Source of the DNA: Macrostomum lignano
Lineage: Eukaryota
Length of the DNA stretch: 64,000 nucleotides
Assembly (NCBI GenBank): GCA_002269645.1
Contig: NIVC01000100.1
Span: 620,001-684,000 of the forward strand
Reading direction: 5' to 3'
The notes below the pieces were generated by a model. It was not told where the DNA came from. It was given only the letters and a program-made list of their open reading frames with translations, and made no database searches. Both the position numbers and the translations under genes were made by a program. Below, piece after piece: positions 3,001-22,943 of the stretch. Position 1 is the stretch's first letter. Every line of letters starts with the position of its first letter.

Positions 3001-6000
3001 TTTCAGCCACTATATACCCAGTTTTCTGCTCCTGAAAACTCTCCAGGTTTGTTGTGCCCTACAATCCTAGCCTGCTGCTGGAATTCGAATGCCACATGAA
3101 CGTAGAAATCTGTGCCTCGGTGAAATCAGTTAAGTACATAATTAAGTACTTATTGAAAGGCGGTGATATGGCATCCTTTCGGGTGACACAGGCGAATGGC
3201 TCCGCACAGTCCGAGCAGTCGGCAGCCAGCGAGGCGCCGCAGGCTGGGAAACAGCGAGACCAAGGTGCAGCAGTTGCGCAAGCACGCGATGAAATTGCGG
3301 AATACCTGTCTGCTCGGTACATTGGTCCAATGGAGGCAGTTAATACTATCCTGGGCTTCGAAGTAAGTGCAGAGAATTTATTTTTAAATTGTCAATGGTA
3401 TTCTTCCATGCCTATTTTTTCATGCGTGAGCATGTATTTGTTCATTCCATTTAATCTGATGCGTCTGTGGCCCTTTAAATTAAAGAGAAAATCAGTTCTA
3501 AAATTCCGCTTTCTACCAGGTCCACAACAGATCCCCAGCCGTCATTCGCCTGTGCGTGCACAATCGCAATGAGCAGCTGGTTTACTTCAACGAAGCAACC
3601 GCGAGCGCAAGGGCGAGGGCGCCAAAAGATTCTACATTGACGGCTTTCTTCAAGCTATGTCGCACTGATGAGTTTGCTCGCAGACTGCTCTATACGGAAG
3701 TGCCGTCTTACTTCACGTGGCACCAGAGCGCCAGGGAGTGGCGTCGCGCCAAGCGCGGTGCCGAAGTTGAAGGACATCCGGGCGTGAGGCGGAGCACCAA
3801 CATCTCTCGAATGTACACCGTGTCTCCGAGAGCTGGCGACCTGTTCTTCACGCGTCTTTTGCTGCTGCACGTGAGGGGACCGACCAGCTATGAGGCACTG
3901 CGGACCGTGGACGGCGTGCTGTTTGCTGATTCGAAAGCTGCGTGCATGGCTTTGGGTCTGCTGCAGCGAGATGATCACTGGCAGAGGTGCCTAGCGGAGG
4001 CTGTGCAGTCACGGATGCCGCGAGCTCTGAGGCACTTGCTGGCAGTCATCCTCATTTGGGGTGAACCTTATGACGGCGAAAATCTGTGGCGCAGCTTTGC
4101 CGATGACCTGTGCGAAGATCTGCGTTATTATCACCCGGAGCTGAGCGTCGAGGAGGTGACCGACTTGGCGCTGCGCGAGGTGCAGGACATGCTGACAGCC
4201 ATGGGCGGCTTCAGCTTGCAAGAGTACGGACTGCCTACGGCCTCTGCTGCAACCCAAGTAGGGCTGCTGCAGTTCGACCTGGTCGAGCAGGCTGAGATCG
4301 CCGAGATGCGAGTTCCACAGCTGACCGAAGAGCAACGGGTTGTGTTCGACTCCATCACTGCGGATCTGACCACTGGCACTGGCGGTCTGCACTTTGTAGA
4401 TGCGCCGGCAGGAACCGGAAAGACATTTCTTCTGGAGGTGCTGCTGGCTTTCGTACGCAGCAGGCGAGAAGTCGCCATTGCTGTCGCAGCATCCGGCATC
4501 GCTGCCACCCTGCTGCCTGGCGGAAAGACGGCGCACTCGACGTGAGTTTATTTGACAAAAATATGGAAACAAAACACAAAACAGCTTCATGTAGTACGAG
4601 TATGCAGTAATGTATGTCTCACATTACATAAATCTGCCTTCTTGGATAGATAAAATAGCATTCAATTTTCACTTACAGTTCAACAGGATTCCTTTTTTTG
4701 TAAATTTTGCTGCTGGATGTGATTGTATTAGAAAATTGTTTGAAACCTGCATAATTTGAATTGAAACTTCCTGGCTGTCCAGGTTCGGTATTCCGGTTCG
4801 CCTGGTGCGCTCAGACAGGGACGTCTGCAGTGTCGGCGCTCAGTCGCAGAAGGCTGCCTTTCTCAGGAGCGACCGCCTCATTGTCTGGGACGAGATATCC
4901 ATGACCCACCGGAAGGACTTGGAATCCGTCGACAGGACCCTGCGTGACGTCCGGAAGCAAAATTCTCTCTTTGGAGGAGTGGTGCTGGTGTGCGCTGGGG
5001 ACTTCCGCCAGCTGCTTCCAGTTGTGAAGAATGGCACCAGGGCTAACAATGTTGAGGCCTGCGTCAGCAGATCCGGCTTGTGGCAGTCGTTCCGGCGGGC
5101 ACCGCCTGACAAGGAACATCCGGTTGCTAAGCAGTTCTGATGATGCGCTGTCTCAACGGTATTCGCATATGCTGATGCAGGTGTGTTTGAGGGTAGTAAT
5201 CATATATGTTAGTTGGTTTCTTGTGTTTCTCCTGTGACATTTCCTTCTTCTATTTATTCTGTTTTCCTCCTTGTCGGATATCATCGTTAATTTTGCTTGG
5301 TGATAATAGATACGGCATGATATAGATAGATACCCTCCGTCTTCAGATCGGTTCTGGCACTACCGAGTACGACTCAGAGGGGGGAATCTCCCTTCCTTCG
5401 GAGATCCTGCTGCCGCCAGACGCCTCACTGGGAGACCTGATCGAGTTCGTCTATCCCTCGTTCGAAGCATCCGAGGTCAGAGACAGTTTCTTTGCGACCC
5501 GTGCGATCTTGGCGCCGTACAACGACTCGGTTGACGCAATCAACGATCAGTGTCTGGCGATGTTTCCCGGCAGCCAGCGCGAGTACCGGTCGATTGACAG
5601 CGTGCCCGATGAGGACTCGGCCACCCACTTCCCGCCGGAACTGCTCAACCGGTTGGACGCACCGAACTTGCCAAAGCACCAGCTCAGGGTCAAAGTGGGC
5701 ATGCCGGTGGTCCTGCTGCGGAACATCAACCCGCCTCGGCTGTGCAACGGCACCCGGCTCATCGTCCTGGCACTAGGAGACAATGTACTGCGCTGCAAAG
5801 TGGCGGCCGGCCAGTACGTAGGCGATGAAATACTGCTGCCTCGGATCCCGCTCGTGCCAAACAACGCAGACTTGCCAATTCGCTTCAAGCGGCTACAGTT
5901 TCCGATCAAGGCCAGTTTCTGCCTGACTATTCACAAGTCGCAGGGCCAGTCGCTGGAGACCGTCGGCATCGACCTGGCTGATGGCTGCTTTGCCCACGGG

Positions 6001-6111
6001 CAGCTTTACACGGCGTTGTCTCGGGCCAAAGATGCTGCCAATGTTCGCGTCCGCATTTCCGGTAATAAGACGCGTAACATCGTGTACCCAGAGGTGCTTT
6101 CTAGAGATTAA
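1..6111 (+). mobile_element. Helitron (autonomous-type, Rep + PIF1 helicase); 5' end lies upstream of the window and 3' terminus is not resolved
   Basis: Zn-like CQHC..CC N-terminus, HUH Rep motifs (PDLFVTATCN; EYQKRxLPHVHILL; YIIKYLLK) and PIF1 motifs (DAPAGTGKTF, DEISM, GDFRQLLPV, TIHKSQGQSL, QLYTALSR) in order on one strand. Confidence 0.95.
1..6111 (+). CDS. Spliced Helitron RepHel protein. Exons <1-61, 199-312, 586-1170, 1419-2203, 2470-2812, 3047-3362, 3520-4541, 4783-5180, 5347-6111; one +1 frameshift at 5097-5099
   Basis: Eight GT..AG introns (62-198, 313-585, 1171-1418, 2204-2469, 2813-3046, 3363-3519, 4542-4782, 5181-5346) each join flanking exons in frame. The last six restore conserved motifs (EHIR|RYNLP, QKR|xLPH, DNR|FVVPYN, GFE|VHNRSP, TAHST|FGIP, LMQ|IGSG). 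The first two introns rest on frame and splice consensus only. Stop TAA 6109-6111, AATAAA at 6121. Confidence 0.88.
2886..2961. repeat. (CACT)n microsatellite inside Helitron intron 5
   Basis: Direct reading of CACT/GACT tetranucleotide runs. Confidence 0.9.
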
Positions 6112-7336
6112 GAGACCCTTAATAAAGACGTGCCAGTTAGCCGCCTTTAGACCAGTTAATAGAACACTAGCCCTCTAATCGACTGACCAGTTACGAGCTA
6201 ATGAGCCTCTTAATTAGGGGCAAGTTGGTGAGTAGATAAGAGACCAATTGATGTGTTGCTTTAGAAGGCAGTCAGCCAGCATTATTCCTGAGACTTTCTA
6301 TACTTAATCTGTTTTTTAAATTAAAAATTACAGTTGTTTCCGCTTGTATCTGCTGCTGTTTTTTCTTTTCCCTTTGTATTGAATCGATAAGTGATTTTAC
6401 TTACTTATTACTCAAAAAAGCATAGATATTTTGGCTTCTTAAAGTGAGTCCACATATTGAATTTTATTTACAAACATTGGCCCAGTTATATTAGCACGAT
6501 TTTTAGTAGCGTTTTTCATTATTTCGATGTTGGTGACTGCCTTGACAACTAGCAGCAAGCATTATCTGTATTAAAAGTGCAGTATATTTTCGATATCAAC
6601 TTCATGGCAGTGCATGTTATTACAGCAGTTTATGTTTAATAGTCTAAAATATTTACAAGGTCGATTTCGATTAAAAACAATCTAATATAGCACTTTTCGT
6701 ACAATCGGATTGCTTGCTGTTGCATCAGGGAAGGGCCTCCCTCTCGGTTATCAAGAAACCCTGATGAACAGAAGTCAAGGCAAAAGGAAGCAGACAACTG
6801 GCATTTTCTGTGACAGTGGCTAACCTGAAAAATTATCTCAAACAATTTTACTGCCCGTATAAACTTCACTGCTTAAATTAAAAACTCTGCCAAATAGCCA
6901 TGCGATTGATTGTCTGCTTCTGAGTCACAACGAGAGGGAATTGAGTTCTTTTTAGGAAGCTATCAATGTCAAAAGGCCTAGCTTCCTTCTCAAACCTTCT
7001 GAAGTACACTCGTTTATAAATACTTTATTATTCGCTAAATGAGAATAACTTGGCTATCCATTTCCTATTGCCAATTAGAAATAGGAGGTTGGGGCCTAAA
7101 AAAATTCGGTGCTCATTATTTTCGTACTTTTGTCCCAGGTGAATTGACATTGCACAGTCACCAACATTGAGGAATGTAAAATTTTAGAGCTTTTTAGAGC
7201 TCTCAGTAAAATTGGTATTAAAACTGTTTAGAGATTTCCTACTGCGGAACTCCTTGGGGATTAGTAGCATTTGCTCAGCGACTGTGCAAAACTACTTATA
7301 GACAAGCGCTAAACTACTAAGAAGCCACCCGGAGGG

Positions 7337-7611
7337 GGCCAGTCGCTGGTGACCGTTGGCATCGAACTGACTGACGGCTGCTTCGCCTACGGCCAACTGT
7401 ATACTGCGCTGTCTCGAGCAAAAGATACTGCCAATGTTCGTGTTCGGATATCAGGCAATCGAACGAGAAACATTGTGTACCCAGAGGTGCTTTCTGATGA
7501 TTAGGCTGCTCAACATTGTAATTGCCTCGAGTTTTTTTAATAATCCTCGACGCTTTTAATAATTTGGAATCTTGAGTAAGCTTGAGCCGAGTGGCTATAC
7601 ATAATACGTAG
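7337..7611 (+). mobile_element. 5'-truncated 3' tail of a second, diverged Helitron (last 55 aa of helicase plus putative 3' end)
   Basis: 7337-7504 translates GQSLVTVGIELTDGCFAYGQLYTALSRAKDTANVRVRISGNRTRNIVYPEVLSDD*, matching 5944-6111. Small hairpin AGCC-GAGT-GGCT at 7585-7596 lies 11 nt before GTAG|T (CTAG-like). Confidence 0.85.
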
Positions 7612-7619
7612 TGCGTGCT

Positions 7620-8600
7620 ATCTAAACGCTCAGCCTTCGACAATATTTTGCTGATGTAGTGCACTGGACGACCCTCCTGGCTCAGAATTCCTCCCAGGGC
7701 CTTCTGCGAAGCATCGAACTCGAGCTCCACAGGCCGATCTGGATCATAGGCCGTTAGCTGCGCAGCTCTAGATATTGAAGCTTTGGGGTTTCCCAGCGCC
7801 TTGCTCTGTTTCGGTCCCCACTCGAAGGGTACATTTTTTTGCTTCAGCTGCATCAGCGGAGCAGTCAGGTCACCTAAATTCTGAATGAACCGTGAGCAAA
7901 ATGCCACTAAGCCCAGGAATGATTCTAGCTCAGCCAGGTTTTTAGGCGCTTCCATGTCTTTAATTGCACGAACTTTTTCTTCGTCTGGGTAAATGTTGCC
8001 GTTTTCGAGTATGTGGCCCAAAAACCGAATCCTGCTTTGATTCCGCTGGCACTTCTTATTTACACGAAGTCCCTCTGCTTCCAGCCGCTGCAGAACCTCC
8101 TCCTCTCTTGACAACAGCTCGTCCTCGTTCTTTCCACCGATCAACACATCATCTATGTAGGCTATAGATCCATTAATTCCCTGAATTACTTCTGAGATAT
8201 ATCTTTGGAAAATGGACGGCGCCGTTTTTATCCCGAACACTAGTCTGTTATATTGGTAATTCCCAAATGGTGTTGACATCACTGTTAGCGGCTTTGATCC
8301 GGCATCCAGCTCGATTTGATTGTAGGTTTTCTCCAAGTCGAGCAGTGTGTGTCGCTTGCAGCCAGATACTACTGAAAACGCCTCTTCCGGAGTCGGCATC
8401 GGGTAGCTGTCAGGTACCAATTGCGGGTTTAGAGTCCTTTTGTAATCCACGCAGAGCCGAATTCCTCCACGTTGTTTCGGCACGACCACAATAGGCGATG
8501 CCCACTCTGCGAAACGTACAGGCTCTATGATTTCCTCCTGGAGCAATCGATCTATCTCTCTCGAACAGCTTCACGTTAGGCAGAAGGCAGCGGCCTTGCC
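7620..8600 (-). pseudogene. pol: Gypsy (Mag-like) pol: reverse transcriptase and partial RNase H; integrase absent
   Basis: EWASPIVVVPK, LCVDYK, YIDDVL, FLGH and DASQKALGGILSQ motifs. A stop and a frameshift lie just upstream of the RT; homology is lost near 7620. Confidence 0.9.
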
Positions 8601-8699
8601 TTTATGTGATTCGGTGTCGCGCCCGCCTTTAACTCTAGATGCGCTTTCATAGATGCACAAGGTGCCGCCTCTCCCACAGCCTGACTTGATTCCAGATGG

Positions 8700-8990
8700 A
8701 CACAAGGCACGTCCCTTCCAAGAAGAGCGTAGCTCTTGTTCACTTTCACAACTTCAAATTGATTGACCGAAATTTGCCTTCGATATCAACAGTTGCTTCA
8801 TACCTTCCCAATACATGAAATGTATGGTCACTCGCATAGCCTCCCAGCTTTACGTCCGAAGGTCTTAGAGTTGGGCGACCAAGTTGGTTCCACAAGGCTT
8901 CTGACAAGATCGACACTCCAGCTCCCGTATCGAGCTCGAAACGGATGGGATGCCCTCTGTTTGCTTCGAGAATCTTCACCGTGATAGCAA
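8700..8990 (-). pseudogene. Gypsy aspartic protease (frameshifted)
   Basis: FELDTGAGVS catalytic motif; LLGRD motif follows in a shifted frame near 8715-8730. Confidence 0.85.
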
Positions 8991-9024
8991 TCGGCTATCG
9001 AGGCTGCTGTCGCTGACAACACCT

Positions 9025-10197
9025 TCAGGCTTCCGCCGCGAAAATGTTTCCACTCCCAGCTACATGTTGTACAGAATTTCCGCCTGATGTCCTGCTTTTA
9101 CTCTCACCATTTCTGCAGACCTTCGCAAAATGATTAGGCTTACCGCACTTATTGCAACTTTTCCCAAACGGGGGGCACTGCATCCTGGCATGTGCGCGTC
9201 GACACTTTTGACACGCCTTCTCGAGACCCTTTCCGTGAGTCTGATTGCTCTTCTTTTCGACGGTTCTAGGCGGTTCTAGTTGTACAGAATTTCCGCCTGA
9301 TGTCCTGCTTTTACTCTCACCATTTCTGCAGACCTTCGCAAAATGATTAGGCTTACCACACTTATTGCAACTTTTCCCAAACGGGGGGCACTGCATCCTG
9401 GCATGTGCGCGTCGACACTTTTGACACGCCTTCTCGAGACCCTTTCCGTGAGTCTGATTGCTCTTCTTTTCGACGGCTCTAGGCTTCGATAAATCGACCT
9501 TTAGGATGGACCCAGCATCAGTTTTTGGTGCACTCTTCATAATAGGAGTCTCCAACAGACTTGCATGCGCTTCTGCTTCGCTAGCTGCGTCCTTAAAACT
9601 GAGCTTCTTGTGATCTTTGACGATAAGCTTCCTAATAATGCCTTGGTTGTTTCGGCCGCAAATGAACTGATCACGCAGTCTTTCGTCCTTGTTTTGAAAC
9701 TCACAATTTTCTGCCGCTTTGATCAATCGCTCGGAGAACACTCGCACTGTTTTGTTTGGTTCTCGTCTTTTACTTTGAAAATTGAATCTTTCGGCAAGGA
9801 CGTACGTTTTGGGCAGCATTATTTCCTCCAGCGCTGTTTTCAGCTCGTCGAATTTCTTATCTCCAGGCTTTTTGGGCGCCAGATAGTCCGCCAGTTTTTC
9901 AAACAGCTGCGGTGCGAGTCTCAAAAGCAGCACCTGAGCCTTGTCGGTCGCGCTCCAGTTGAAGAACTTCGACGCGATCTCGAGGCGATCCATCCATCGC
10001 TCCAGGCTAGAGTTCTCGTCCAATCGCTCTATTTCGGCCATTCTCGACGTTGGACGGCTGCTTTGGTTCGACAAAGTCGCATCCTGTGAGAGCATGCTCG
10101 GAGCTATTGCTGCAATCTTCACTGTAGACTTCACTGGTGTCTTACCAGGTACTTTTCCTGGTGACTTCGACATATCTCGCAAGTTGACTAAGTCCAA
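9025..10197 (-). CDS. gag: Gypsy gag with four CCHC-type zinc knuckles (two duplicated pairs); first ATG at 10173
   Basis: LRDQFICG capsid-type motif; CQKCRRAHARMQC and CNKCGKPNHFAKVC each occur twice. Confidence 0.88.
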   Translation of the reverse strand: MDLVNLRDMSKSPGKVPGKTPVKSTVKIAAIAPSMLSQDATLSNQSSRPTSRMAEIERLDENSSLERWMDRLEIASKFFNWSATDKAQVLLLRLAPQLFEKLADYLAPKKPGDKKFDELKTALEEIMLPKTYVLAERFNFQSKRREPNKTVRVFSERLIKAAENCEFQNKDERLRDQFICGRNNQGIIRKLIVKDHKKLSFKDAASEAEAHASLLETPIMKSAPKTDAGSILKVDLSKPRAVEKKSNQTHGKGLEKACQKCRRAHARMQCPPFGKSCNKCGKPNHFAKVCRNGESKSRTSGGNSVQLEPPRTVEKKSNQTHGKGLEKACQKCRRAHARMQCPPFGKSCNKCGKPNHFAKVCRNGESKSRTSGGNSVQHVAGSGNIFAAEA

Positions 10198-10200
10198 AAG

Positions 10201-10212
10201 CTTGCGACGCCA
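10201..10212 (-). promoter_or_regulatory. Putative primer-binding site of the Gypsy element, next to a putative LTR end at 10214
   Basis: Minus strand reads ...TAGCA-G-TGGCGTCGCAAG directly upstream of gag. The TGG start is complementary to a tRNA CCA end. The other LTR boundary is not resolved. Confidence 0.5.
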
Positions 10213-10609
10213 CTGCTATGTATGCACTAAGGAGACTGAGTCATTCGGTCGTTGTCAGACGATTGCGAGAGTTTTGTACTCATATATTTCAGAGCGCTCA
10301 CGCCAAGCGTCTTCTAGGCCTCTTGGCTTTCTTTAATTTCTGCTCTGATGTACATTATAAAATAAAATTACTGTGGTGGTTCCCAGGTGTCTATGGCCCT
10401 GAGCCCACACACAGCATTTTCAGTATTCTCACAGTATTCTCTCAATGTTTAACAGCGCTTGTTGCCAAACGTTCTGCCAAAAAGTCTGCCAGCTGGCAGA
10501 AAAAGCGTTGCGCCAATATTTTGGCAATTGGAAAGAAAAGCCGCCTCCCCACTTGGTGGTCTTTCGTGCTATGAACTGACTAAAAAACTAACCCTTGCTA
10601 CAGCTGCTC

Positions 10610-10910
10610 CTGCTGCAGCTGCTACTGCTGCAGCTGTTAGTGCGCCGACTGCCCGTGCGGCAGCTACTCCAGCTGCGGCTGCTCCTGCCGTCCCGACTGC
10701 TCCTGCCGTCCCGACTGCTCCTGCCGTCCCGACTGCTCCTGCCGTCCCGAGTGCTCCTGCCGTCCCGACTGTTCCTGCCGTCCCGAGTGCTCCTGCCGTC
10801 CCGACTGCTCCTGCCGTCCCGACGTCTGCTGCTGCTGCTGCTGCTTCTCATAATTCTGGGACTGGGGCTGGGGCTGGGGCTGGGGCTGGGGCTAGGGCTG
10901 TGGCTGGGGG
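10610..10910. repeat. GC-rich minisatellite: 18-bp GCTCCTGCCGTCCCGACT units plus (GCT)n and (GGGGCT)n
   Basis: Direct reading. Confidence 0.9.
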
Positions 10911-10959
10911 TAGGTGCGTTGTGCAATAGTGTTGGGCACTGTATTGATTAGCGATTCTA

Positions 10960-11165
10960 GAGGTGGTTTATGACCGATTCTAGGGGTGGTTTTGACCGAG
11001 TCTAGGGGTGGTTTATGACCGAGTCTAGGGGTGGTTTATGACCGATTCTAGGGGTGGTTTATGAGCGACTCCAGGGGTGGTTTATTAGCAATTCTAGGGG
11101 TGGTTTATTAGCGATTCTAGTGGTGGTTTATGACGATTATAAAGATGGTTTATGAGCGATTCTAG
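10960..11165. repeat. ~23-bp tandem repeat TCTAGGGGTGGTTTATGACCGAG
   Basis: Direct reading, about 8-9 degenerate units. Confidence 0.85.
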
Positions 11166-11689
11166 GAAGTGGTTCATTCATTCTGTTGACTCCGTTTTGC
11201 GTTCCCACTTGAATTAAAATTGAAATATTGAAATGTTTTTATGCTCTAAATATATAAAGCATCTTTAATTGTTTACCAAGGAAAACTTGATAACTCAGGA
11301 CCGGAAACGAGCCAATTCATGGCGAAAAAAGTATGAGGCTCGTTTAAAAGCATTGTTCTATGGCCCATCCGTATGCGCATGCTTTCAGTTGCCAATGTAT
11401 ACGCGTATCATATTTGACTTTTTGATAGGCAGTCAGAAGGCGGGTGCAGGGTCGGTTTTCTTGAATGTTGAAGTTTGATTGCATAAAGTAACCGTCGTGA
11501 AAATACACAATGGGTAAGCTGTACATGCAGCACATGTATAAGGAAACTCGAGAAAAATTTACGATTTTTTCTTTATCTGAACTACAAACAGAGAGGAAAA
11601 TAGCTCGTAACAGTCACAGAACGGGACAAGAGCTGACCATGATAAATAGTGAAGTGTTTGCTCCAGGTTCGCTCACTGTCCACTCAGCT

Positions 11690-12694
11690 TCAGTATTTTT
11701 CTATCGTGCACTTTATCCGGCGAAGGAGCGCTCTTTGCTCCTCGTTGAACATAACCCTTGAAGAAACAGTTGGTGAGGCGCACGCAGCATCCCAGAACAT
11801 CTGCTTCAGGGAAGTAAAACTCGCCAACGGCAGCAAACAATTTGCGCACTCGCAAAGCACATGACGGTGATCGCAGCGAAATGAAGCATCCGAAACAAAG
11901 GCAAGCAAAATTGAACAGCCACTTTGGCGGGTGCTTCAACTTTCCCCGGGAAATCATTTCAGTGAATTCACCGAGTGGGGTGTTTAAAGTTTCGGCAGGA
12001 TCATCACCGGCAATTTTCTCCTTAAACGTTATGTAGCCTGAAATGTTATTATTATGCCTAAGTTGTCCTTCGCCTCAGCAATCGTTATTTCCATCCAAGT
12101 TCAAGTAACACAAATGCATGCCTTACCTGCAATATAATAAACAGATGCCTTTTCGGCCATTGATAGGCTCTCAGCTTTTACGTAGCAGTCATCGAGCGTC
12201 GAATTTTCTTCGTCTGAAAGGGGCGTGTCGCAGCAAAGTCCTTTGTTGTGCACGAATTCATCCAGCTCTAACACAGTGTAGAGTTTCATTCGTCGGAGTC
12301 GAGCGCTGAGAAGAACTTGCTCTACTGAGATAAAGTAATTGCCTCCGCTCATTTGGCGATAAACACCAAATTCTGCTTCCAGAGGATCACTTTGCAACTC
12401 CGCTATGAGAATGTACGTTGCACCAGATTCGCAGAGCAGTCGTTCGCATACTCGTAGTTCTATGATTGCATGAATAGTGTAAGCTAATGACCTCTTCGTC
12501 TCTGACATCAGAGATTGGTGTCTTGTTCTTCCCTTTCCACTGCGCATCTCCTCAATCAATTCGCAAAGCGCACGCAGGAACTTGATGTTTGGATCTTGAA
12601 CTGAATAGACAGCCCGTCTGTCTGGGTCATTAAGTCTAACATGAAGATGCGGGTTCTTGCAGTTCACAATTTTCCAGAATTTAACCGAAAGCAT
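11690..12694 (-). pseudogene. P-type transposase C-terminal region (element 1)
   Basis: LQSDPLEAEFGVYRQMSGGNYF motif carrying the third catalytic E; SRGKLKHP C-terminal motif; broken frames. Confidence 0.85.
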
Positions 12695-13069
12695 CGCACG
12701 GAATAGTTTGGTGAAACGAAAACCCGCAGAACCATTTCGGCATTGGCGCTTAACGAGAAGATAAACACCTCCTCTTGAACAATGGTAACAATAAGCTGAT
12801 ATGCTTTGATGACGTCTGAACAGTGAATGGATGCTCGGAATTCAGTCCACGATGGCAGCGTGTCACGCTCTCGAAATTCTACTAGTTCATCGTGGAAAAG
12901 GCATCGTTCGGACAACAGCACGCCCCTTCCCTCAGCCTGTCGACTGGCACGCACTGCAATATCCAAGCACGCATCTTAGTGTTTCGTTTCGACCCTATTT
13001 GATTGAGTGCAAATGCGCTCGAATATTAAAATTAAAGCAGTAGAACTTCACAAACTTTGTGTTTGAACG

Positions 13070-13419
13070 AGGCAGGACTGCGGGACTCCGTCGAAAACTG
13101 ATGGTGGATGTAGCGGCCTTTCATTTCTTCCCTTTTTTATCATTGGTGCATCTTGAGGCCAGTGCTTAGCACACACGCCCATGTAGTCTGTCACGGTCTA
13201 AACAACAACAAAATTGTTAATGAATTCATGGGGCCAGGCTAAATCTGATTCACAAAGCACATTTGTAGAAAGTCTTACCGTCAGTTGATTAGGCAGTGAC
13301 AGCCGCCAAGCCTCTCGTTCAGTTGTTGCATCCTTAGGAAACGAAAATACTGCAACATTCCGATCACGGTTACTATTGTAATTTGCACAACAAAAAATGA
13401 CGCTGCATTTTCTCGGCAT
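13070..13419 (-). pseudogene. THAP zinc-finger N-terminus of P-type transposase (element 1)
   Basis: MPRKCSVIFC...VFSFPKD...W...P...LC pattern; PPSVFDGVPQSCL follows in a shifted frame. Confidence 0.8.
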
Positions 13420-14649
13420 GATATTTAGTTTCAGCGAGAATAAAATTTCTCTCTCTCAATTGCAAGTGCATGCGAAGAACTCAATTTTCAGCTCAGATTT
13501 CTTCGCTTTCGTAGCTTTGGATGGGCCATAGAACAATGCTTTTAAACGAGCCTCATACTTTTTCGCCATGAATTGGCCGTTTCCGGTCCTGAGTTATCAA
13601 GTTGTCCTTGTTGTTTACTTAATGCCAACGCAATTAGCGGGCTAAACTCATAGGTCAGTTAAACTAAGCGTCTGTTTCAATGTTTTTTCTATGTCCGAAA
13701 CCCACTTTCTTGGCATTTAATTTAATAAAAAGGGACACAAAAATTCTTTTTTTCCTATTTGCTGTTAAATTGTGCAATTTTTTTCTTATCCAGTACGTAC
13801 TACTTACAGCAGTTTGCTATAAATGTTTTAGTTGTAACGTATTTTTTGTTTTAAATGCAATCTTCTAAAATATCAAACAACTGTCAACTTTGTTTTAACT
13901 GTTGTCCGCCTTTTTATCTTAGGGGGTACTGCTAGTAATTTATACGAATAGTTATTTATTGTTGTAAATATTAATTTGCTTTATGCACTCTTTTTTTAGT
14001 TTGAATCTTTACAGTACTATATTTTGCAATTTTTTATTTATCGAGTACTTTAAGTTTTGTAAAATGAGTTGAGTAATAAATAATATTAATAATGCTAAAT
14101 GCTGTTACTAAGTAGTGTAGGAACTGCATTTATTTATTAATTTAATATTTATTATTATATTTCAACAGTTTTGTATAAACTTTGTTTAAATTAAATTATA
14201 GACATAGCCTATAACTAAGATTTTTAGTTCTTCATATGTCATAGCCATAAAAGATAAAAACACAATATAGCTTTTTATTTAAGTTCTTAATTTGGGTTTA
14301 ATAAACAGGTCATGGCCATAAAAGTTACAAACATTAAAACCATCGTCCCACCTTTGAAGACGACAGCGTCTTCATTCACTAGTTATTTACTTGGCGCATG
14401 CAATACAAAGCCCACCCTTCTCCTAAACAGCCGCCAATCCCCAACCCCAACATGAAAGATTACGACAGCTACTGAGGTAGGGTGTGTATATTATGACTAT
14501 AGTACTCGTAGTAGCTAACTTAGCGTTTAATTTTCCAACCAATCATAGAATTCCCTGTTCAAATTTGTTTAAATATCTCATTTTGTTTGAATTTTTGTTT
14601 GTTTGAATCTTGCCTTTTTGTTTGAATGCGTCCCCCATTTTTCCCAAAA

Positions 14650-15360
14650 TTTAGTATAAAAGGAGGCGAGTTGGCCAAAAAAAATTGACCTGGTGTTACC
14701 TGATTAACTATCGAGAACTCTTAGTAAGCAAACTTGAAGTTTTTGGCTAAGACTTATCTCGCTATTTCTTTCATAAAAAGTAAAACCAGAGGTCGTGGAG
14801 ACCCTAGACCAGGATTCTAGATAGGAAAACCAGAGGTCGTGGAGACCCAAGACCAGGATTCTAGAGACGGCAGTCAGAGGTCGTGGAGACCCAGAACTAG
14901 GTATCTGGAATAGGGAAATTTGAGGTCGTAAAGACCCAGAATAGAGGTTAAAGGTGGGGATCTTGAGGTCGTACAGACCCTAAGAAAGCCGTACAGGCTA
15001 ACAATAGACATTAGGCACTAGGAGATTAGATATTAGGGACGTAGGTTAGTTGCCGCTGGACACCCTTGATCCTCGGAAAACGCTAGGCTTTCGGACTGAA
15101 TTAAGGAATTAGACAGTGTCTTACCGCTCGGGCACTACACGCTATCACAAGGTTTCTAGGAAGCCGTGTGAAATTAGAAGTTTCTAGGAGAGAGTAATAG
15201 ATTAGGGCTGCGAACGCTACTCAAAGTAGATATATTAGTGACAATTTATAGGATAGGGAGATTAGAACTAAAGAACTGCAGCAAATTGGTGAGATAATTT
15301 CAGTAGGAACCACAAGGGCTAGCACACTACTATAACTTTGCAGAAATCATTAGACAATTG
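14650..15360 (+). mobile_element. LTR-like remnant containing ~44-bp tandem repeats (CAGAGGTCGTGGAGACCC core, 14786-14990)
   Basis: TATAAAA near 14656. Segment AGACAGTGTCTTACCGCTCG resembles AGATCAGTGTTTGCCGCTCG in the PBS-bearing LTR at 19.5 kb. Boundaries unclear. Confidence 0.35.
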
Positions 15361-15367
15361 TGATTTC

Positions 15368-16260
15368 TCATATTCTCTCAATTATCAACAGCAGTAAAAA
15401 CTCTTCACCGTTGAAATCAACGCCCACCCCATCTTCAGTCTCAAACTGTAGCACAATCTCGTGAATCTCCTTATTACTCAATGCTGCAACTCTTTTCACT
15501 GGATTTGGTTTCTCTACCAGTATTTGTCCTCCAGCTACAGAGTTAGAGATGTTGTACAAAATATTCGTTCGCTTTCCCTTAAATACCCAATCTAGACTGA
15601 GATCTGAGATCTAGACTGAGATTCTAATCTACTGATTAGAATATTCAAACCCTTTACAATGTCTGCAATATTGGGTGCTAAGAACAAACCGCTTACACTT
15701 TCCCGGGCCATGCAAACGACCCCCGATGATTTCGGCGCTTGAGTGCCGGTCCGCGCCGTGGATTTTACCTTATTAACTTTCTTTTCGAATCCCAATTCCC
15801 TATACTAAGTGTCATCTTTAAACTCAACCTCCGCATCTTTGTGAACTTGCATGACCACTCTCATTACAGTGAGATCATAGGCTAGTTTGACAGGGAACAG
15901 TTCTGGCTTAATCGGATCAGGTGTCTCAAAATGGCCTCTTTTAGTAAAGACGTTTTCTAGAAAGTAATTGTAGGTATCCACACTTTGCGTGCTCACAGGG
16001 AATACCACAGGTTCTGCTGCCGCACCTTTCCATTAGTAATAAAACTTATTATTTGCTGCCGTCACATTGGGAACGTTTGATCAACCAGTGAAGTCGTTAA
16101 GATAGACATGGTAATAAGCACCTGGATCCAGGCGAACCGCCTGCTCTAATTTTTGAACAAATATCTTGTTTGAGTCATTAATTCGCCCAGTTATTGTAAT
16201 AGGATTGCTCTCCTTAGAGTGAGAAATAATATTATTTAGTCTTTCAGCAATCGCTTCCAT
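15368..16260 (-). pseudogene. Polinton/Maverick (adintovirus-like) minor capsid protein (penton)
   Basis: Stitched translation: ITITGR..F.QKLEQAVRLD..Y.VYLNDFTG*SNVPNVTAANNKFYY...LGF...APNIADI...LYNISNSVAGGQILVEKP...IHEIVLQFETEDGVGVDFNGEEFLLLLII. This follows the Maverick penton pattern. Four in-frame stops and one frameshift. Confidence 0.82.
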
Positions 16261-16279
16261 TTTTTGTCCTAAAATTTTT

Positions 16280-16490
16280 TTAAACTTCACTGGATGAATT
16301 GTCGATCATGTTAAGCTTCACCTTCCTCTCAAATGCATAGATAATGTACAGGTCCACGGGTGTTGCGACAGTCCTCTCAATGTTAGTCACAATATTCACA
16401 GGGCTGTTATCAGTAGGCATTTGTCTGGCAGACACATCAGCGCCAAACATCGGATATAGAGTTCCATATTGAAGAGCAGTGATAACAATT
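16280..16490 (-). pseudogene. C-terminal fragment of Polinton/Maverick major capsid protein
   Basis: GIVITALQYGTLYPMFGADVS...SPVNI...LYIIYAFERKVKL resembles the MCP C-terminus; its stop lies 20 nt upstream of the penton ATG. Confidence 0.65.
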
Positions 16491-18131
16491 CCATTGTTCT
16501 CTTTCACAGCCAAGTCGACCAACTCGACTCTCCTCCATTTCCACTTGCTCCCCAACCCTCGTTTTTCACTATTTTACTTCAGTTTACGATCTCTATTTTA
16601 CATTTTCAGCTTCCCCAACAACGATGTTTCCGCAGCGCTACAAACGAGTCTGTGCTCGGCCGACTTTGGAGTAAGTGTGGGAGTCACAAGACTGTGAAGA
16701 TAGCCAGGACCAGTCTGCAACGAGCCTTGAACCTAAGGAGCCAGTCAATCCTAATTCTGTAACTGTTTTCTCTCTCTTTGTCGTATTTTCCTCTTTTCTG
16801 CAAATGATAATAATAATATAACACTCACACGAAACGAAATTGCCTTTTGCCTCGCTGTTTTATCGCAGACTGCAACCTACGGTGGCGGTCAACTGGCGGA
16901 GGACTCTGGAGCTGATGACATTCGGACTAAGGAACCGGACAACCGGACAAAGGCCTACGAACGCGAAGACGAAGACTTCGACCATGGAGGCGGAGCTGAT
17001 GTAAGCTTCGACGAACAGTTGACTTTGTTTAAGAATGTCCCCTCCGGTTGTAACAAGCGAATCGTTTTTGCTGCGGCTTTCCTTCTTCTGCAAATTTCGT
17101 GCAACATGACCAAAGTAGCGCTTAGAGAAATCTGAAGCTAGCCAACTTTTTGGGGCTAATTTTCCAGTTGATTCGAGGACTTCAAAGGGAACCGTTTATT
17201 CTGAAATCGAGGATTCCAGGGCGTGGATGAGCTGCTTCGAAGTGTGTCTGACTTGTTACCATTTTCGCTCTAGTTGTGTGTGCAGTGGTAGTGCGTACGG
17301 CGAATTTTACACCATCGATGTTGAGCGCCAGGTTACTGTCATTATTAAGTCCTTTTACAAGGACATAGAAAGGCACTTTCAGTTGATGAGACATGGCTAT
17401 CAGGACGACTTAACTTAACTTTGCTCTAAAACCAGAGCTGCAATGTCAGAAGTCTGAGTATTGTATGCTTTAGTAGTGCTACTTCTCTAGTTTGTAATAA
17501 CTGCAATAATCTTTTGTAATTGGCTCGTAATTCGATGTGGTCTATAATTGCAAACATCAACTGATTCACATGGAGACCGATTGTCAAACTCTAGCTTTGC
17601 TCCACTTTTAATTTGCGAATTTTTGCTACAATGTTTGTTTAGTGTTTGCATTATATTTGTGTACGTCATGTTTCAGCTCTTTACTTTAGCTGATTATAAA
17701 GATGGCCACATTGTAGTGACATGAAAGTGAATGTTTGTGATTAGAAGTGTTTGTTTTATTTGCTCATTGAATATTGTAAAACCCTGGCTGAGCAATTCAA
17801 AGCTGCCGTTATGAGTTCTGACCCCGGGGAAAACCAGAAGCCACGCCGTGCCCCCAAGATCAAAAGATGTTGCTAGATTAGAATGACTGATTTGTGTAAG
17901 TAGCATTTAAATTAGCACAAAAGTCCATGATATTTTCCTATTACATAGGGTCCTTACAAGCCTGCAGATCTGGCCAGAATTGCATACAAGGTCTAAGGGT
18001 AAAGTCTTTAAGATCATGCAAGAATCCTATAATATCATGCAAGATAAAGCAGATCTTACATGATCTTATCTCTAAGATATGCTTCAGAGTGTACGGCACT
18101 CTGAACGTCAATTCATTGTCATCTAGGGCAG

Positions 18132-19050
18132 GTGCGCGACGCGGAGCTGCAGAGTGTACGGCACACAATGCATTGTTTGCAAATTAAGCATCAGCGGCTC
18201 AAGGAAGATTGCATCGCGAAGGACCTTGACATCGCCAGGTTTCAGCAGGAAAGCACTGCAATGTGTCTCCGTATTTCGGGTCTGGAGAAGGAGCTGGAAA
18301 AGCTACAAGCGGAGTTGGTCCAGGTGAGCAGCACGGGGCCCAAATGTATACTCAGCAACATTGAGAAGTTGCCACTCTATGCGCAGGTGAGCAATTTCTC
18401 TTGGATTATTATGAACTAAAAGATACGAGAAAACTAATCGGGGTAGCTTTAACCCGTCCAACCCTCGCACACCGCTCCCCCCATTTCATTCCTCAACTCA
18501 AGTCTTCCACGGCGTAGCTAAGTTGCCTCACTCGCAAAGATTGAGACTTTAATCTGCACTCTCAAAAGTGGCGATCACAGATGGAATCTTCTGTGATGGC
18601 GACTTTTCAATGTTGCTGAGTATATATTCGCACATGCAGAAATGTCAAGGCTGTACAGTCAAGCCTTCACACTTTCTATTACTAAGGTAGAGCAAGACAG
18701 TTCCACTTCAAAATACAGGGCACAATATAGGGTGGCATACAGGGCACAATTTCTCCGCATCGACCATTTCGTTGATGCTATTAGAGACGCAGCCAGCAGC
18801 AATGCACCAGCAGCACATCCAGTCGCGGACACGGACGTTTTTGCGTCTGGAAAGCTAGCTGAGTTGATGGGCATTCCATTGGACGCGCCACATTGCGGCC
18901 ACTGTGTCAGTTGCCGCTACAGCATTCCCGCTGCTCGTTGCCGATGTTGCCGCTACTGCTGAAGCCGACACCACCGGCACCGGTGTCGTGGCCGATATGA
19001 CCGATATGGTCTATCTGATTTCTAGGGCACCCATACAAGTGAGGCAGGCC
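18132..19050 (+). other. Degraded, probably multi-exon coding fragment (coiled-coil-like), identity unknown
   Basis: GC-rich blocks with heptad-like LRISGLEKELEKLQAELVQ ending at GTGAG donor-like sites; no recognisable domain. Confidence 0.25.
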
Positions 19051-19179
19051 CGATATATTTTAATATTCGCGTATCTACCATTTTGAATTCCCGCCAAAAT
19101 ATGCCTAACTACGAATTTTGTTTAAATAGGATATTTGTTTTAATGGTTTAAATTTTATATTCAGGAAAATTATTTTGTT

Positions 19180-19658
19180 AGAATGATGTAAAAGAAATTT
19201 GTTTATTCATGTCCCGCGCACCCCACCTCCTTTTTCGAGAGTATGGTTCTATTTATTTATATTCTATTCTATTTCTATTTATTTATATGTGGTGTTCACA
19301 AGCGTGTTCGGGCTGTTTATTTCTTCGCCCGCCGATTCTTTGATTCGGTCTAAAGAAGCAAAATCGTGTTGGCTCAGTTCTCGAAAAGCAGTAGAAAGAA
19401 AAAAGCCGTAAGAGGCCAGTAAAGGAAGTAAGCGGTCGGCCAGTCGGGCAACTCCATCCTAGGATAACCTGTTTAGGACTGGATAGAATAGAAATTAGAA
19501 ACTCAGTAGCCAGAAATTTAGATCAGTGTTTGCCGCTCGACACTGCTACCAGGACTACTTGTATGATTCAAGGAATTCTAGATTAAATTTGGTTTGGGAA
19601 TTTTTCTTTAGGAATAGTATCATATAACCAGCGAAAACTTGGTGGCAGCGGTGGGATT
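19180..19658 (+). mobile_element. Gypsy-type LTR remnant with tRNA-Leu primer-binding site (19643-19658)
   Basis: TGGCAGCGGTGGGATT is a 16-nt complement of the conserved tRNA-Leu 3' end (AATCCCACCGCTGCCA). No gag follows; LTR start is approximate. Confidence 0.65.
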
Positions 19659-21059
19659 TGTAGAAGGACAGGAGTTTCCCCTACAACACAAGGTTTCCTT
19701 CCTTTTGATAATGATCACGATAATGAAAAATTGACGATTACTTCTAATACACAGCACACTTTTCCACCTCCTTGCTTCCACATATAGATCAAGCTGAGAA
19801 GCTACTCAGAGGTGTTGTCCGCAACAGAAGAGAACAAGCGGGTGCGGTCCAGCCTGAAGTCTCTAGTGAAGGACTCTACTGCGCGCGATTTTCGCGGAAA
19901 AAGACATCGCGACGAAATTGTTGACCGGCCGGACTCGCAACCAGGGTACCCGCGAACTGGTGCCATCAAGTATCCTGGATGTTGTGCAGTCATACTTGGT
20001 GCGTGCCGGACCATTTTCTTCTCTTCTCTTCTCTCCCCTTCCCCTCTCTCCACTTCCCCTCTCTTCCTTTTCCCTCTCTCCCCCTTCTCGCCTCTCCTCT
20101 TCTTTCCCTTCTTTCTCATTTCTCTCTTCTCCTCTCTCCCTTTTCTCATCTTTTCTCTTCTTTTCCTTTTCGATTCCCTCTCCACTCTCTTCTCCTCCCT
20201 CTCCCCTCTCTCCTCTTTTTTCTGTCTCGCCTCTCCTCATATCTCATATCTCTCCTCTCGTTTTATCTCCTGCATCTCCTCTCTTCTCTCATCTCTAATT
20301 TTCTATTTCTTATCCTTTCCAATCTCATCTGGCTTGCCGCCATGAGCTGGATTCTTCTCTACCTGGCCCTTAGGGTAAAATAGTTTGCCGACCCTTGGAC
20401 TAGAAGTTATTGCTTCTAATCTGGAAAGAGTACCGGTAAGCGAAATCAGAGACCGATGAAATAGGGGAAGCCTGTGTGTTAGCTAGACATGCCCTGGGAG
20501 GAGATAAGAGACGAGGAAGAAAATCATAAACAGTCGTTTGTTTTTCATTGTGAAAAAGGGAGCGATAAAATCAACGAAGGCAAGAGTCAAAGTTGGTTCA
20601 ATCAGGGCGGGACTGAGAACCGGAACAGTCATACCATTCATATTTGTGACCGAGAAGCACTAGCATTCAATTCATATTCGAGTTATCACATATTCATACG
20701 TGCGTAAATCATTCGCATTGGATACAATCACGCCTAAGCCAGTTTCTTTTACAAGCTTGTATTCGAGTGTGGTGAGAGTGGTTTTTTCCCTCACTTCCTT
20801 TCCCCCCTCCCCCTCTCAAGCCTCCTGCAAGTTGGCCCAAAACCCCCACTCAGCCCCCAGTTTGTTGTGTATGCTCGTTTTACCAGTATAAATATCATAA
20901 AGCATTCTTCCACTTTACTTGCGAGCTCGGCTAGAGATAACATCTGCCAAACGGCAAAAAATACTATGGGATACCCTTAGTATAAAAATTTTGCAATGCC
21001 CCCTTCCCCGGTCTGCCTCTTTCTTCACTCTACCCTAGGCTTTCTTCCCTGGGACAGGG

Positions 21060-22943
21060 CGCGGACCCCGGGATTATAAGCAACTGGACTGGAAGGAGAG
21101 ATAATTTTATTTTCCACCCTATACCACAGGGGGGCACTGCTTCTCCCTTCTGTCCCCCAGTTGGGGGCTTGGGGTGTTTGTTCCACGAGGGAAGGAAAGC
21201 TTTCGTTGTACACTAAAAAGCTCTCTCTACAATGTACATTCCAATTCGTCCCTGTTCGTATTTCGGCCGGGGTTGTGGCCTATAGTGGACTACAAGAATC
21301 GCTGCACTGTACAGCATGTCCTAAAAACGATCTCTCCTTGTTTTTGCTAACTAGCACTCATAATTGTCTGATCGACTCTGAGAGTGAAGACGACTAATGG
21401 TGAAGGCTTGCTCAGCGTACGGATGCTCAAATCGAGCAAATGGAACTGTCGCAGGAGTCAGCTTCCATAGTTTTCCATGGAAGGACCCCGCCCTTCTGGA
21501 AAAGTGGAAGCGAGCCAACCCAAGTCAGGAGTTTGAGCCAACAAAAAGCTCAAGGATTTGCTCCAGACATTTTCATCCGGACGACTTCCATGGATACAAA
21601 CGTCGCACGTAAGAAGAGCAAGGAGCAACTACTAAGACGCCTTTTGAAACAAGGGGCTGTGCCGTCCATCTTTCCCAACGCTCCATCCTACCTGTCCTCT
21701 GAAAAAAAGCCGCAGAGATCAACAGCGGCGACTTCTTCTGAACGTCTGGAGCGGGAACTCAGTGCCCTGCAAAGCAGCATCGACACCTTTCAGGAAGCCG
21801 ACTCAATTGCTGATTGCGGCCTACACGACGTGCGCTCCAGACTTGATCAGGAGGAGAGTAAGCCAGCAGGTTTTCAATTCTCTCTGTGTGACGGCAAGCT
21901 GTGCATTTACATGCTTGAGATGGAGCCCAATTTTCATGTTGCGTGCTATATTTGCTTGGCTGAAGACCTCACCGTCACATTTGGATTCCGTGGATTGCCT
22001 CTGAAGATGAATAGGTTTGTCGATCTGTTGACTAATGGCAAGGTCTCGACCCTTAGCCAGCTTGTTAACATCATGTCGAGAATCAAGATACGGCCGAGTC
22101 TGACGATAAAGTTTCGCATCTGCTGGATATGGCTGAAGACCTGTTAGAAGAGGTGGAAGAGCTGGCAGAAAACCGAACGGTGAGCTTTGCTTTGGAGCAA
22201 TTGAAGTTGAGTAGGAAGCCAGCCTCTGCTCGCAGGTACTCGCAGGAGCTTCTCGTTTTTGCGTATTTAATTTACTCAATCAGTGCCGCTGCATACAAGA
22301 CCATGCTGGAGCAGGAGGCACTTTGTCTGCCATCTGATCGCACTTTGAGGTCCATCACAGCTAGAGTTGGTTCTAAGGTAGGTCTGGATAACGAAGGCTA
22401 TCTTAAACTTCGGGCATCTAAGCTTGAACAAGTTGAGAAAGTTGTCGTCCTTGCGATCGATGAGATCTACATTGCCAATCGGGTTGAGTACAACAATGGT
22501 CAGTTGAATGGACTGGATGCAGATGGAGCTACAGCAAAGACACTCTGCTGCTTCATGATCCGCTCTGTAGCGAGTCAATACAAGGACATGATTGCGATGC
22601 ATGCCGTTGCAACATTGACTGCGAAGAAACTTACAGAATGGTTTCACCAGGCGATGAGTGTCTTAAGAAAGTTGAATTTCACCGTTTGTGCAGTGTGCGT
22701 TGATAATGCCGCAGTGAACCGCAAGTTTGTCAGAGGCCTGTGCGGCAACAACTTCAACCCTTGCTTCATGGATGAAGTAACTGGACAGCCTGTTTTTTTG
22801 CTGTTCGATCCAGTGCATTTATGTGATTTGTGTTAGCAATTCATGCCCCTCTGCAGATAAGCTGTGTAGGAAACTAATGCCCCCTTGTGGTATGGGTTAT
22901 TTTTAGCCTTCCAGTCCAGTTGCTTATAATCCCGGGGTCCGCG
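21060..22943 (+). mobile_element. P-superfamily (THAP) DNA transposon lacking the 3' half of its transposase
   Basis: Perfect 37-bp TIRs (21060-21096; 22907-22943) CGCGGACCCCGGGATTATAAGCAACTGGACTGGAAGG; 7-bp TSD GACAGGG at 21053-21059 and 22944-22950. Confidence 0.93.
21397..22836 (+). pseudogene. THAP domain plus N-terminal/core P-type (THAP9-like) transposase, frameshifted and truncated
   Basis: MVKACSAYGCSN..FHSFP..W..ICSRHF and LKQGAVPSIF (THAP); LCLPSDRTLR, AIDEIY, CVDNAAVNRKF, FDPVHL (transposase core). Frameshifts near 21600 and 22130. Confidence 0.9.

Follow-up and report, generated by a model that had tools for sequence, protein, structure and literature searches.

Capsid-gene remnant in the window

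The capsid-gene remnant was located on the minus strand of the window (the whole 64-kb stretch of DNA that was analysed), where positions 16526–15368 consisted of the last 81 codons of a major capsid protein (MCP) gene, a 19-nt gap and a broken penton gene. The MCP portion (16280–16526; coding 16525–16283, stop 16282–16280) had lost its 5′ 347 codons and retained codons 348–428 and the stop in an intact frame. In total, 78 of the 81 residues (96%) were identical to residues 348–428 of a natural 428-amino-acid (aa) MCP encoded by another family copy in the same genome. The penton (minor capsid) pseudogene (15368–16260) began with an ATG at 16260 and ended with a stop at 15370–15368. Its frame was interrupted by three in-frame stops (~16083, ~16035 and ~15807) and shifted by a 23-nt insertion near 15628. 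Its pieces matched a natural 287-aa copy at 186 of 211 and 68 of 79 residues, and open-frame natural copies from the same genome showed 86–96% protein identity to the window pieces.

The original prediction of a Polinton/Maverick MCP tail followed by a penton gene was borne out by the identity of the MCP tail and by the predicted folds of open natural copies. The short ORFs could be joined into a single penton gene, with three stops and one frameshift, and the two genes were adjacent as expected, the gap measuring 19 nt and not 20 nt. Pfam analysis of the window's own three pieces gave no match (0/3), a PDB sequence search with the X-read penton returned no match, and PDB sequence searches with both alignments returned nothing significant. 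The capsid identity of the window pieces rests on the modelled folds of the open natural copies. Because these copies are predicted to fold as capsid and penton proteins, jelly-roll matches, whose lack had been named as the evidence against a capsid module, were obtained. An Rfam scan of 13500–18500 gave no match. When 13 family ORF products were compared with the 64-kb window using tblastn, only two (MCP and penton) matched; no pPolB, integrase, ATPase or protease of the family was detected in the window, in agreement with the expectation that replication and packaging genes were missing nearby.

Structural identity of the two capsid proteins

The natural 428-aa MCP gave a weak Pfam match to the double-jelly-roll family PF21738 (E 6.7e-4, under cut-off), and its nine database homologues, with 43–77% identity, all carried PF21738. 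The structure model of the MCP was of low confidence (pLDDT 52). Foldseek analysis of this model revealed the Sputnik MCP as the best match (E 1.7e-10), with PBCV-1 and iridovirus capsid chains also top-ranked. In VIA-align, the top six rows were all viral double-jelly-roll entries (Z 8.8–10.9), the first ranks being occupied by faustovirus, orf virus scaffold, ASFV p72 and PBCV-1 (Z 10.1–10.9), and the superpositions gave an rmsd of 7.5–8.7 over 260–279 residues.

The natural 287-aa penton had no Pfam match, and its 13 database homologues (39–65% identity) carried neither a Pfam family nor a name. The penton model (pLDDT 76) had the mavirus penton as its best Foldseek match (E 1.2e-8; VIA Z 12.7, rmsd 7.2 over 236 residues), and also resembled the Sputnik, PBCV-1 and adenovirus pentons; among predicted viral structures it matched the MELD-virus penton and adomavirus LO5. 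A penton profile search collected 821 representatives at E ≤ 0.001; ten of the 150 remote homologues listed were checked for names, and the three that were named were all 'hypothetical protein'. ESM Atlas recognition values for both proteins were below the 2300 mark and are read as leads only. Judged from the models, the parent family encodes a double-jelly-roll MCP and a single-jelly-roll penton. The database proteins nearest to the family were unnamed, and the family may already carry a name in Repbase or Dfam.

Architecture of the remnant locus

Polinton-derived DNA extended from 16526, where it is cut inside the MCP gene, through the penton gene to the inner terminal repeat at 15327, and resumed at 14472–14379. 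The position originally given for the module was therefore correct and its bounds (15368–16490) were too narrow, the Polinton-derived DNA comprising 14379–14472 and 15327–16526. Two minus-strand pieces represented the inner end of the terminal inverted repeat of the Polinton. The first, at 15327–15361, includes one copy of a target duplication made by a long terminal repeat (LTR), and the second, at 14453–14472 on the far side of this LTR, was identical at 18 of 18 bases to the repeat of a full element on contig C1 (E 1.6e-5). The two pieces were uninterrupted in the C1382 copy of the locus, and about 55 bp of the inner repeat is left in the window.

The intervening DNA (14473–15326) is an 854-bp solo LTR of the Ty3/gypsy type, a non-Polinton sequence that was inserted into the remnant later, which confirmed the LTR-like appearance noted earlier for the left flank. 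It had TG...CA ends, 44-bp tandem repeats and a 4-bp target duplication at 14469–14472 and 15327–15330, and the C1382 copy of the locus represented its empty site. The solo LTR was 86% identical over 548 bp to the 748-bp paired LTRs on C1098, which were 99.7% alike and flanked a gag-pol element with the order protease-RT-RNaseH-integrase. As the LTR lies inside Polinton DNA with a duplication of its own and is absent from the C1382 copy, it did not carry the remnant. Only the C1382 copy carried a related 1.1-kb LTR-like insert (L025:7052–8160; site equivalent to window 16638–16641), which was 79% identical to the window solo LTR and separated by 110 bp from the remnant's other end.

Beyond the second repeat piece, a 73-bp minus-strand stretch (14379–14451) corresponded to the 3′ part of the family's PLA2 gene. 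It was 81–93% identical in all ten fetched loci, each of which also held integrase and PLA2 matches. In full elements the PLA2 gene is located on the other arm and on the other strand relative to the window arrangement; the junction at 14451–14453 thus joins opposite arms, with an overlap of at most 2 bases. Because the PLA2 piece comes from the other arm and strand, this junction requires two adjacent inverted copies, an exchange of ends or a template switch, and cannot arise from a single deletion in one ordinary element.

No outer repeat end and no Polinton target duplication survived at the window locus, which is not a complete element by these two features or by its other core genes. Its capsid, repeat and PLA2 pieces all matched the parent family, from which the locus descends as judged by sequence. 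On the left it was flanked by a pile of other repeats (13611–14144 and 14133–14384). The right flank (16527–17254) is single-locus sequence with no Polinton match, common to the C5131 and C1382 copies.

Copies of the locus and neighbouring elements

The window copy represented one locus present on four contigs (C100, C5131, C327 and C1382). C5131 and C327 were 99–99.8% identical to the window over 10–17 kb, with C327 ending at window position 16500. C1382 shared blocks with the window from ~7.6 to 40 kb at 95–99% identity and carried different transposon insertions. Independent insertions on C5131, C327 and C1382 were excluded by the flanks, which were common over many kb. Another locus was likewise present in three near-identical copies, which indicates that haplotypes or duplicated segments are represented in the assembly. 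The right flank at 16527–18100 matched C100, C5131 and C1382 only (four matches from four candidates), and the junction 16526/16527 was spanned on the same three contigs only, among the best 40 scored of 230 candidates. With the right junction and flank confined to copies of one locus, there was no sign that the fragment had been captured or moved by another element, as had been suggested. A comparison of flanks had been proposed as a check; the right flank was shared only with copies of the same locus, and the left-flank LTR was absent from the C1382 copy.

The window was dense in other transposons. A THAP-domain, P-element-like transposon (11277–13610) with closed 94-bp inverted ends and an 8-bp duplication was located 0.8 kb from the remnant, and was unmatched in the C1382 copy of the locus. 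A Helitron Rep/Pif1 helicase split over several frames (1318–6108; Pfam Helitron_like_N, PIF1, Pif1_2B) was located ~8 kb away, and other Helitron copies ended their match at ~6103. The window also contained a truncated LTR-retrotransposon pol (7320–10416), a TNP-like transposase (21404–22833) within 37-bp inverted ends (21060–22943) and a DUF1258/Transposase_21-like ORF (39495–40394). The window and C5131 shared a stretch of ~3 kb (17255–20223) that the C1382 copy lacked.

Parent Polinton family

A full copy of the parent family could be delimited on C1 (1410497–1425919; L064, L023, L024). It was ~15.4 kb long, with AGTAG termini, a 6-bp target duplication and 622-bp terminal inverted repeats that were 97.9% alike. 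A 6-bp target duplication was also present in C2023; the outer ends could be resolved in two of the four pairs examined, those of C51 and C687 being the exceptions. Compiled from several copies, the gene order ran from an inverted repeat through PLA2, on the opposite strand, to integrase, pPolB and protease; a group of opposite-strand ORFs, the ATPase among them, came next and was followed by MCP, penton and an inverted repeat. The position of the protease was taken from C28 and C2829. Pfam analysis of family ORFs drawn from four copies revealed rve (integrase, E 3.9e-9), Pox_A32 (ATPase, E 7.6e-7), Peptidase_C5 (adenain-type protease, E 2.2e-4) and a PLA2-like domain (Phospholip_A2_4, E 1.2e-13); four other family ORFs scanned by Pfam gave no convincing family. 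The pPolB matched DNA_pol_B_2 (PF03175) under the cut-off (E 1.2e-4), and polymerase motifs A, B and C were present. An endonuclease VII (HNH-type)-like insert with a weak Pfam match (Endonuclease_7, E 1.2e-4) was observed in the family pPolB (L023:2312–4018). With pPolB, integrase, ATPase, protease, MCP, penton, terminal repeats, target duplication and a matching size, the parent family is a Polinton/Maverick.

The pPolB was split over several frames in all four copies with ORFs listed (C1, C51, C1412 and C2829; three frames in C1), and part of it was gone in C2023 and C3859. These splits may be real or assembly errors. That the gene is split in all ORF-listed copies counts against full autonomy of the family.

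When the genome was searched with the DNA of 15368–16520, 407 candidates were obtained; the 40 that were scored were all 90–100% identical over nearly the whole query. An integrase search produced 1540 candidates and 116 scored matches at 90–100% identity. The expectation of an isolated dsDNA-virus fossil therefore held locally only; genome-wide, many close relatives could be found, and the proposed search for intact ones succeeded with the 15.4-kb full element on C1. The 20 best loci were compared: four were the window locus and 16 were other places, two pairs among the latter being near-identical and probably the same locus twice. These 16 copies matched the window from 16526 to 15327 or 15364 and no further, and three of them also lost the match inside the MCP gene. 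The penton frame was open (285–287 codons) in 12 of the 16 and the MCP frame (429 codons) in seven, and the copies were on average 3.2% apart by substitutions (120 pairs).

Several rearranged relatives were observed. On C2829 (~75–93 kb; L071/L072/L073), two family copies lay in tandem, the first apparently without protease, pPolB and integrase. A 3.3-kb internally deleted Polinton (L083:2606–5893; also L082 and L084), consisting of repeat, PLA2, integrase, half a penton gene and repeat, had intact ends and a 6-bp target duplication and represented one locus on three contigs. At L080:2259–3229 and L086:2593–4588, the 3′ end of the penton gene and a terminal repeat were located beyond PLA2 on the left arm, an arrangement that suggests the exchange of one element end for the other. 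A second, different Polinton-like element was located on C986 (~309–318 kb; L033:1308–9999), ~10 kb from a copy of the family. By eye, its ORFs were pPolB-, ATPase-, capsid- (450 aa), penton- (273 aa) and integrase-like, and its 450-aa and 273-aa ORFs had no Pfam match.

Sequence decay of the remnant

The window copy differed from the 16 other copies by 5.1–6.0% substitutions (94–95% identity), and the four copies of the locus grouped as one long branch. At 252 codons invariant in the 16 others, the window copy had acquired 4 silent, 13 missense and 3 nonsense changes (pN/pS 1.11); the same count gave a pN/pS of 0.66 for the C1382 copy. Between the window and C1382 copies, 4 silent and 20 missense changes were observed. 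The median pairwise dN/dS among the 16 other copies was 0.325. In binomial tests based on small counts (20 and 24 changes), the two sets departed from the 0.325 ratio (p 0.015 and 0.003) and agreed with neutrality (p 1.0 and 0.63). The window copy is therefore likely to be changing as expected under neutrality. The window and C1382 copies, which were 2.2% apart, had two stops and the frameshift in common; the first stop and the LTR were not shared, and the C1382 copy had three small frameshifting indels of its own.

Public sequencing runs

No public run on record as RNA held the stretch. Four of 24 runs were examined, all as contigs; three were presumed to be RNA and one was likely DNA. Beyond 16526, the contigs of the three presumed-RNA runs continued into sequence that differed from the window, a behaviour also seen in family copies. 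No GT..AG joint could be seen in 13611–18100 in these three runs; neither result bears on whether the stretch is transcribed. The run contigs gave no support to a putative small exon that had been proposed by eye at ~16611–16671. In the likely DNA run, the capsid stretch had a summed depth of ~4,000–15,000 and the unique flank one of ~30; these values, which are not copy numbers, are consistent with a family of high copy number. Run contigs skipped 16222–16536 (X1) and 15545–15937 (X1, X16) with non-canonical ends. These are deletion variants, that of 16222–16536 being one at the window locus: a single contig joins 16221 to 16537, so the MCP tail has been lost in some allele.

Origin of the remnant

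The best explanation, to which we assign a probability of roughly 80%, is that the stretch derives from the capsid end of an abundant Polinton/Maverick family, of which truncation, rearrangement and breakage have left a remnant that is likely non-functional and decaying neutrally. As the family is present in many, often far more complete copies, the scrap is likely an ordinary dead remnant. It would have started when the integrase inserted an element that was either full-length or already deleted internally; this origin remains an inference, since the locus keeps neither a target duplication nor an outer repeat end. Probably two copies lay head to head, or one copy had exchanged ends, and deletions would then have removed the remainder, joining the inner terminal repeat directly to a short part of PLA2. 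Comparable damage is common in the family, as in the three copies that lose the match inside MCP and in the 3.3-kb internally deleted copy. Points that weigh against this explanation are the junction between PLA2 and the repeat, the MCP tail that is still open at 96% identity, the small counts of the selection test together with the pN/pS of 0.66 for the C1382 copy, and the low confidence of the MCP model with its Pfam match under the cut-off. The order of events follows from marks shared with the C1382 copy and marks that are private. Truncation, two stops and the frameshift would have come first, the copies of the locus would then have split, and the third stop and the solo LTR would have been added last in the window's lineage. 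The capsid roles of MCP, penton, ATPase and protease are established for the Polinton virus lineage. A full copy would supply MCP trimers and penton pentamers for an icosahedral capsid, which the A32-type ATPase would fill and the adenain-type protease would mature. From the remnant, neither MCP nor penton can be produced in full.

The rival that survives best proposes a patch, in which two Polinton pieces (the right arm and the left-arm PLA2 bit) were copied or ligated into a chromosome break and a full insertion never existed. The source was possibly a freely replicating element whose arms were held side by side by paired repeats, and the product would be equally dead. Both ends of the remnant are internal cuts without target duplication, the 14451–14453 junction joins opposite arms with almost no overlap, and no other family gene occurs in the window, all of which suit a patch. 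However, the left-flank repeats at 13611–14144 and 14133–14384 could have replaced lost Polinton DNA, end exchanges that place penton 3′ ends beside PLA2 occur in integrated copies (L080, L086), and no empty site was found in the assembly. We consider a patch distinctly unlikely.

Capture and movement by the LTR element, by the Helitron at 1.3–6.1 kb or by the THAP transposon is very improbable and largely refuted. The idea draws on the transposon density of the window, with the Helitron 8 kb and the THAP element 0.8 kb away, but the LTR lies within the remnant and is missing from the C1382 copy, the THAP element has its own closed ends (11277–13610) and 8-bp duplication, and other Helitron copies end their match at ~6103. 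Moreover, the junction 16526/16527 occurred on three contigs only, all copies of one locus sharing ~7.6 to 40 kb. Retention by the host, whether the remnant served as a co-opted piece of protein or gave rise to small RNAs directed at the active family, is scarcely credible: the remnant is present in all four copies of the locus within a transposon-rich tract, but its stops, the frameshifts that differ between locus copies and the neutral substitution ratios speak against a protein, and the contig joining 16221 to 16537 reveals loss of the MCP tail in some allele.

Comparison with known elements and significance

Polintons are described as 13–25 kb long, with inverted repeats of 100–1500 bp and target duplications of 5–8 bp (10.1101/2023.08.22.554363). 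The parent family agrees with them in its pPolB, rve integrase, A32-type ATPase, adenain-type protease, MCP and penton, and its size, repeats and duplication are within these ranges. The window locus differs in consisting of only an MCP tail, a broken penton gene, ~55 bp of inner repeat and 73 bp of PLA2. A parvovirus-type PLA2 gene is called characteristic of the virion modules of Alpha (Mayetiola-class) adintoviruses (PMC8502044). The integrase, adenain, hexon- and penton-like genes and parvovirus-type PLA2 described in that source are also found in the parent family, whose PLA2 match covers the PLA2-like domain (E 1.2e-13). The family PolB gave only the weak PF03175 match (E 1.2e-4) and carries the endonuclease VII-like insert; no OTU match occurred in the split family ORFs scanned, and sequence searches with the family proteins returned no named adintovirus protein. 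Of these features, it is the PLA2 gene that suggests an adintovirus virion module of the Alpha type. Homing-endonuclease inserts have been described in Polinton pPolBs (PMC11161782; 10.1101/2023.08.22.554363), and an HNH insert is called unique to the pPolB2 of oomycetes and terrestrial nematodes in one of these accounts (10.1101/2023.08.22.554363).

Degraded Polinton pieces are described in many animals (PMC8502044, PMC9683012). The degraded Mavericks of placental mammals and birds, which have a reported age of ~100 million years and no intact relatives in their hosts, share with the remnant broken capsid genes, lost terminal repeats and the absence of a sign of selection (PMC9683012). In contrast, the window remnant is 5–6% from many open-frame relatives in the same genome. 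In C. elegans, Polinton remnants are reported to rearrange host loci (10.1101/2024.01.15.575659). Polinton remnants with terminal-repeat pieces left after rearrangement are common to both cases; the effect on host loci is reported for C. elegans. Literature searches returned no paper describing a domesticated Polinton capsid gene.

The scrap itself matters little, since broken pieces are to be expected in any genome rich in Polintons. It is useful as a pointer to the parent family, which is the more interesting object. This family, in a host that the look of neighbouring genes and elements suggests to be an animal, is numerous and young, with capsid frames open in many copies, and so bears on whether animal Polintons still make particles; the split pPolB in every copy with ORFs listed stands against particle-making. 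A more speculative proposal, which we hold to be rather unlikely, combines a two-arm patch, copied into a chromosome break from Polinton DNA that replicated freely, with a parent family that is still cycling as a germ-line virus and has hundreds of candidate copies, open capsid frames under purifying selection and near-identical terminal repeats. If the proposal were true, the host would offer a natural setting for a search for Polinton particles.
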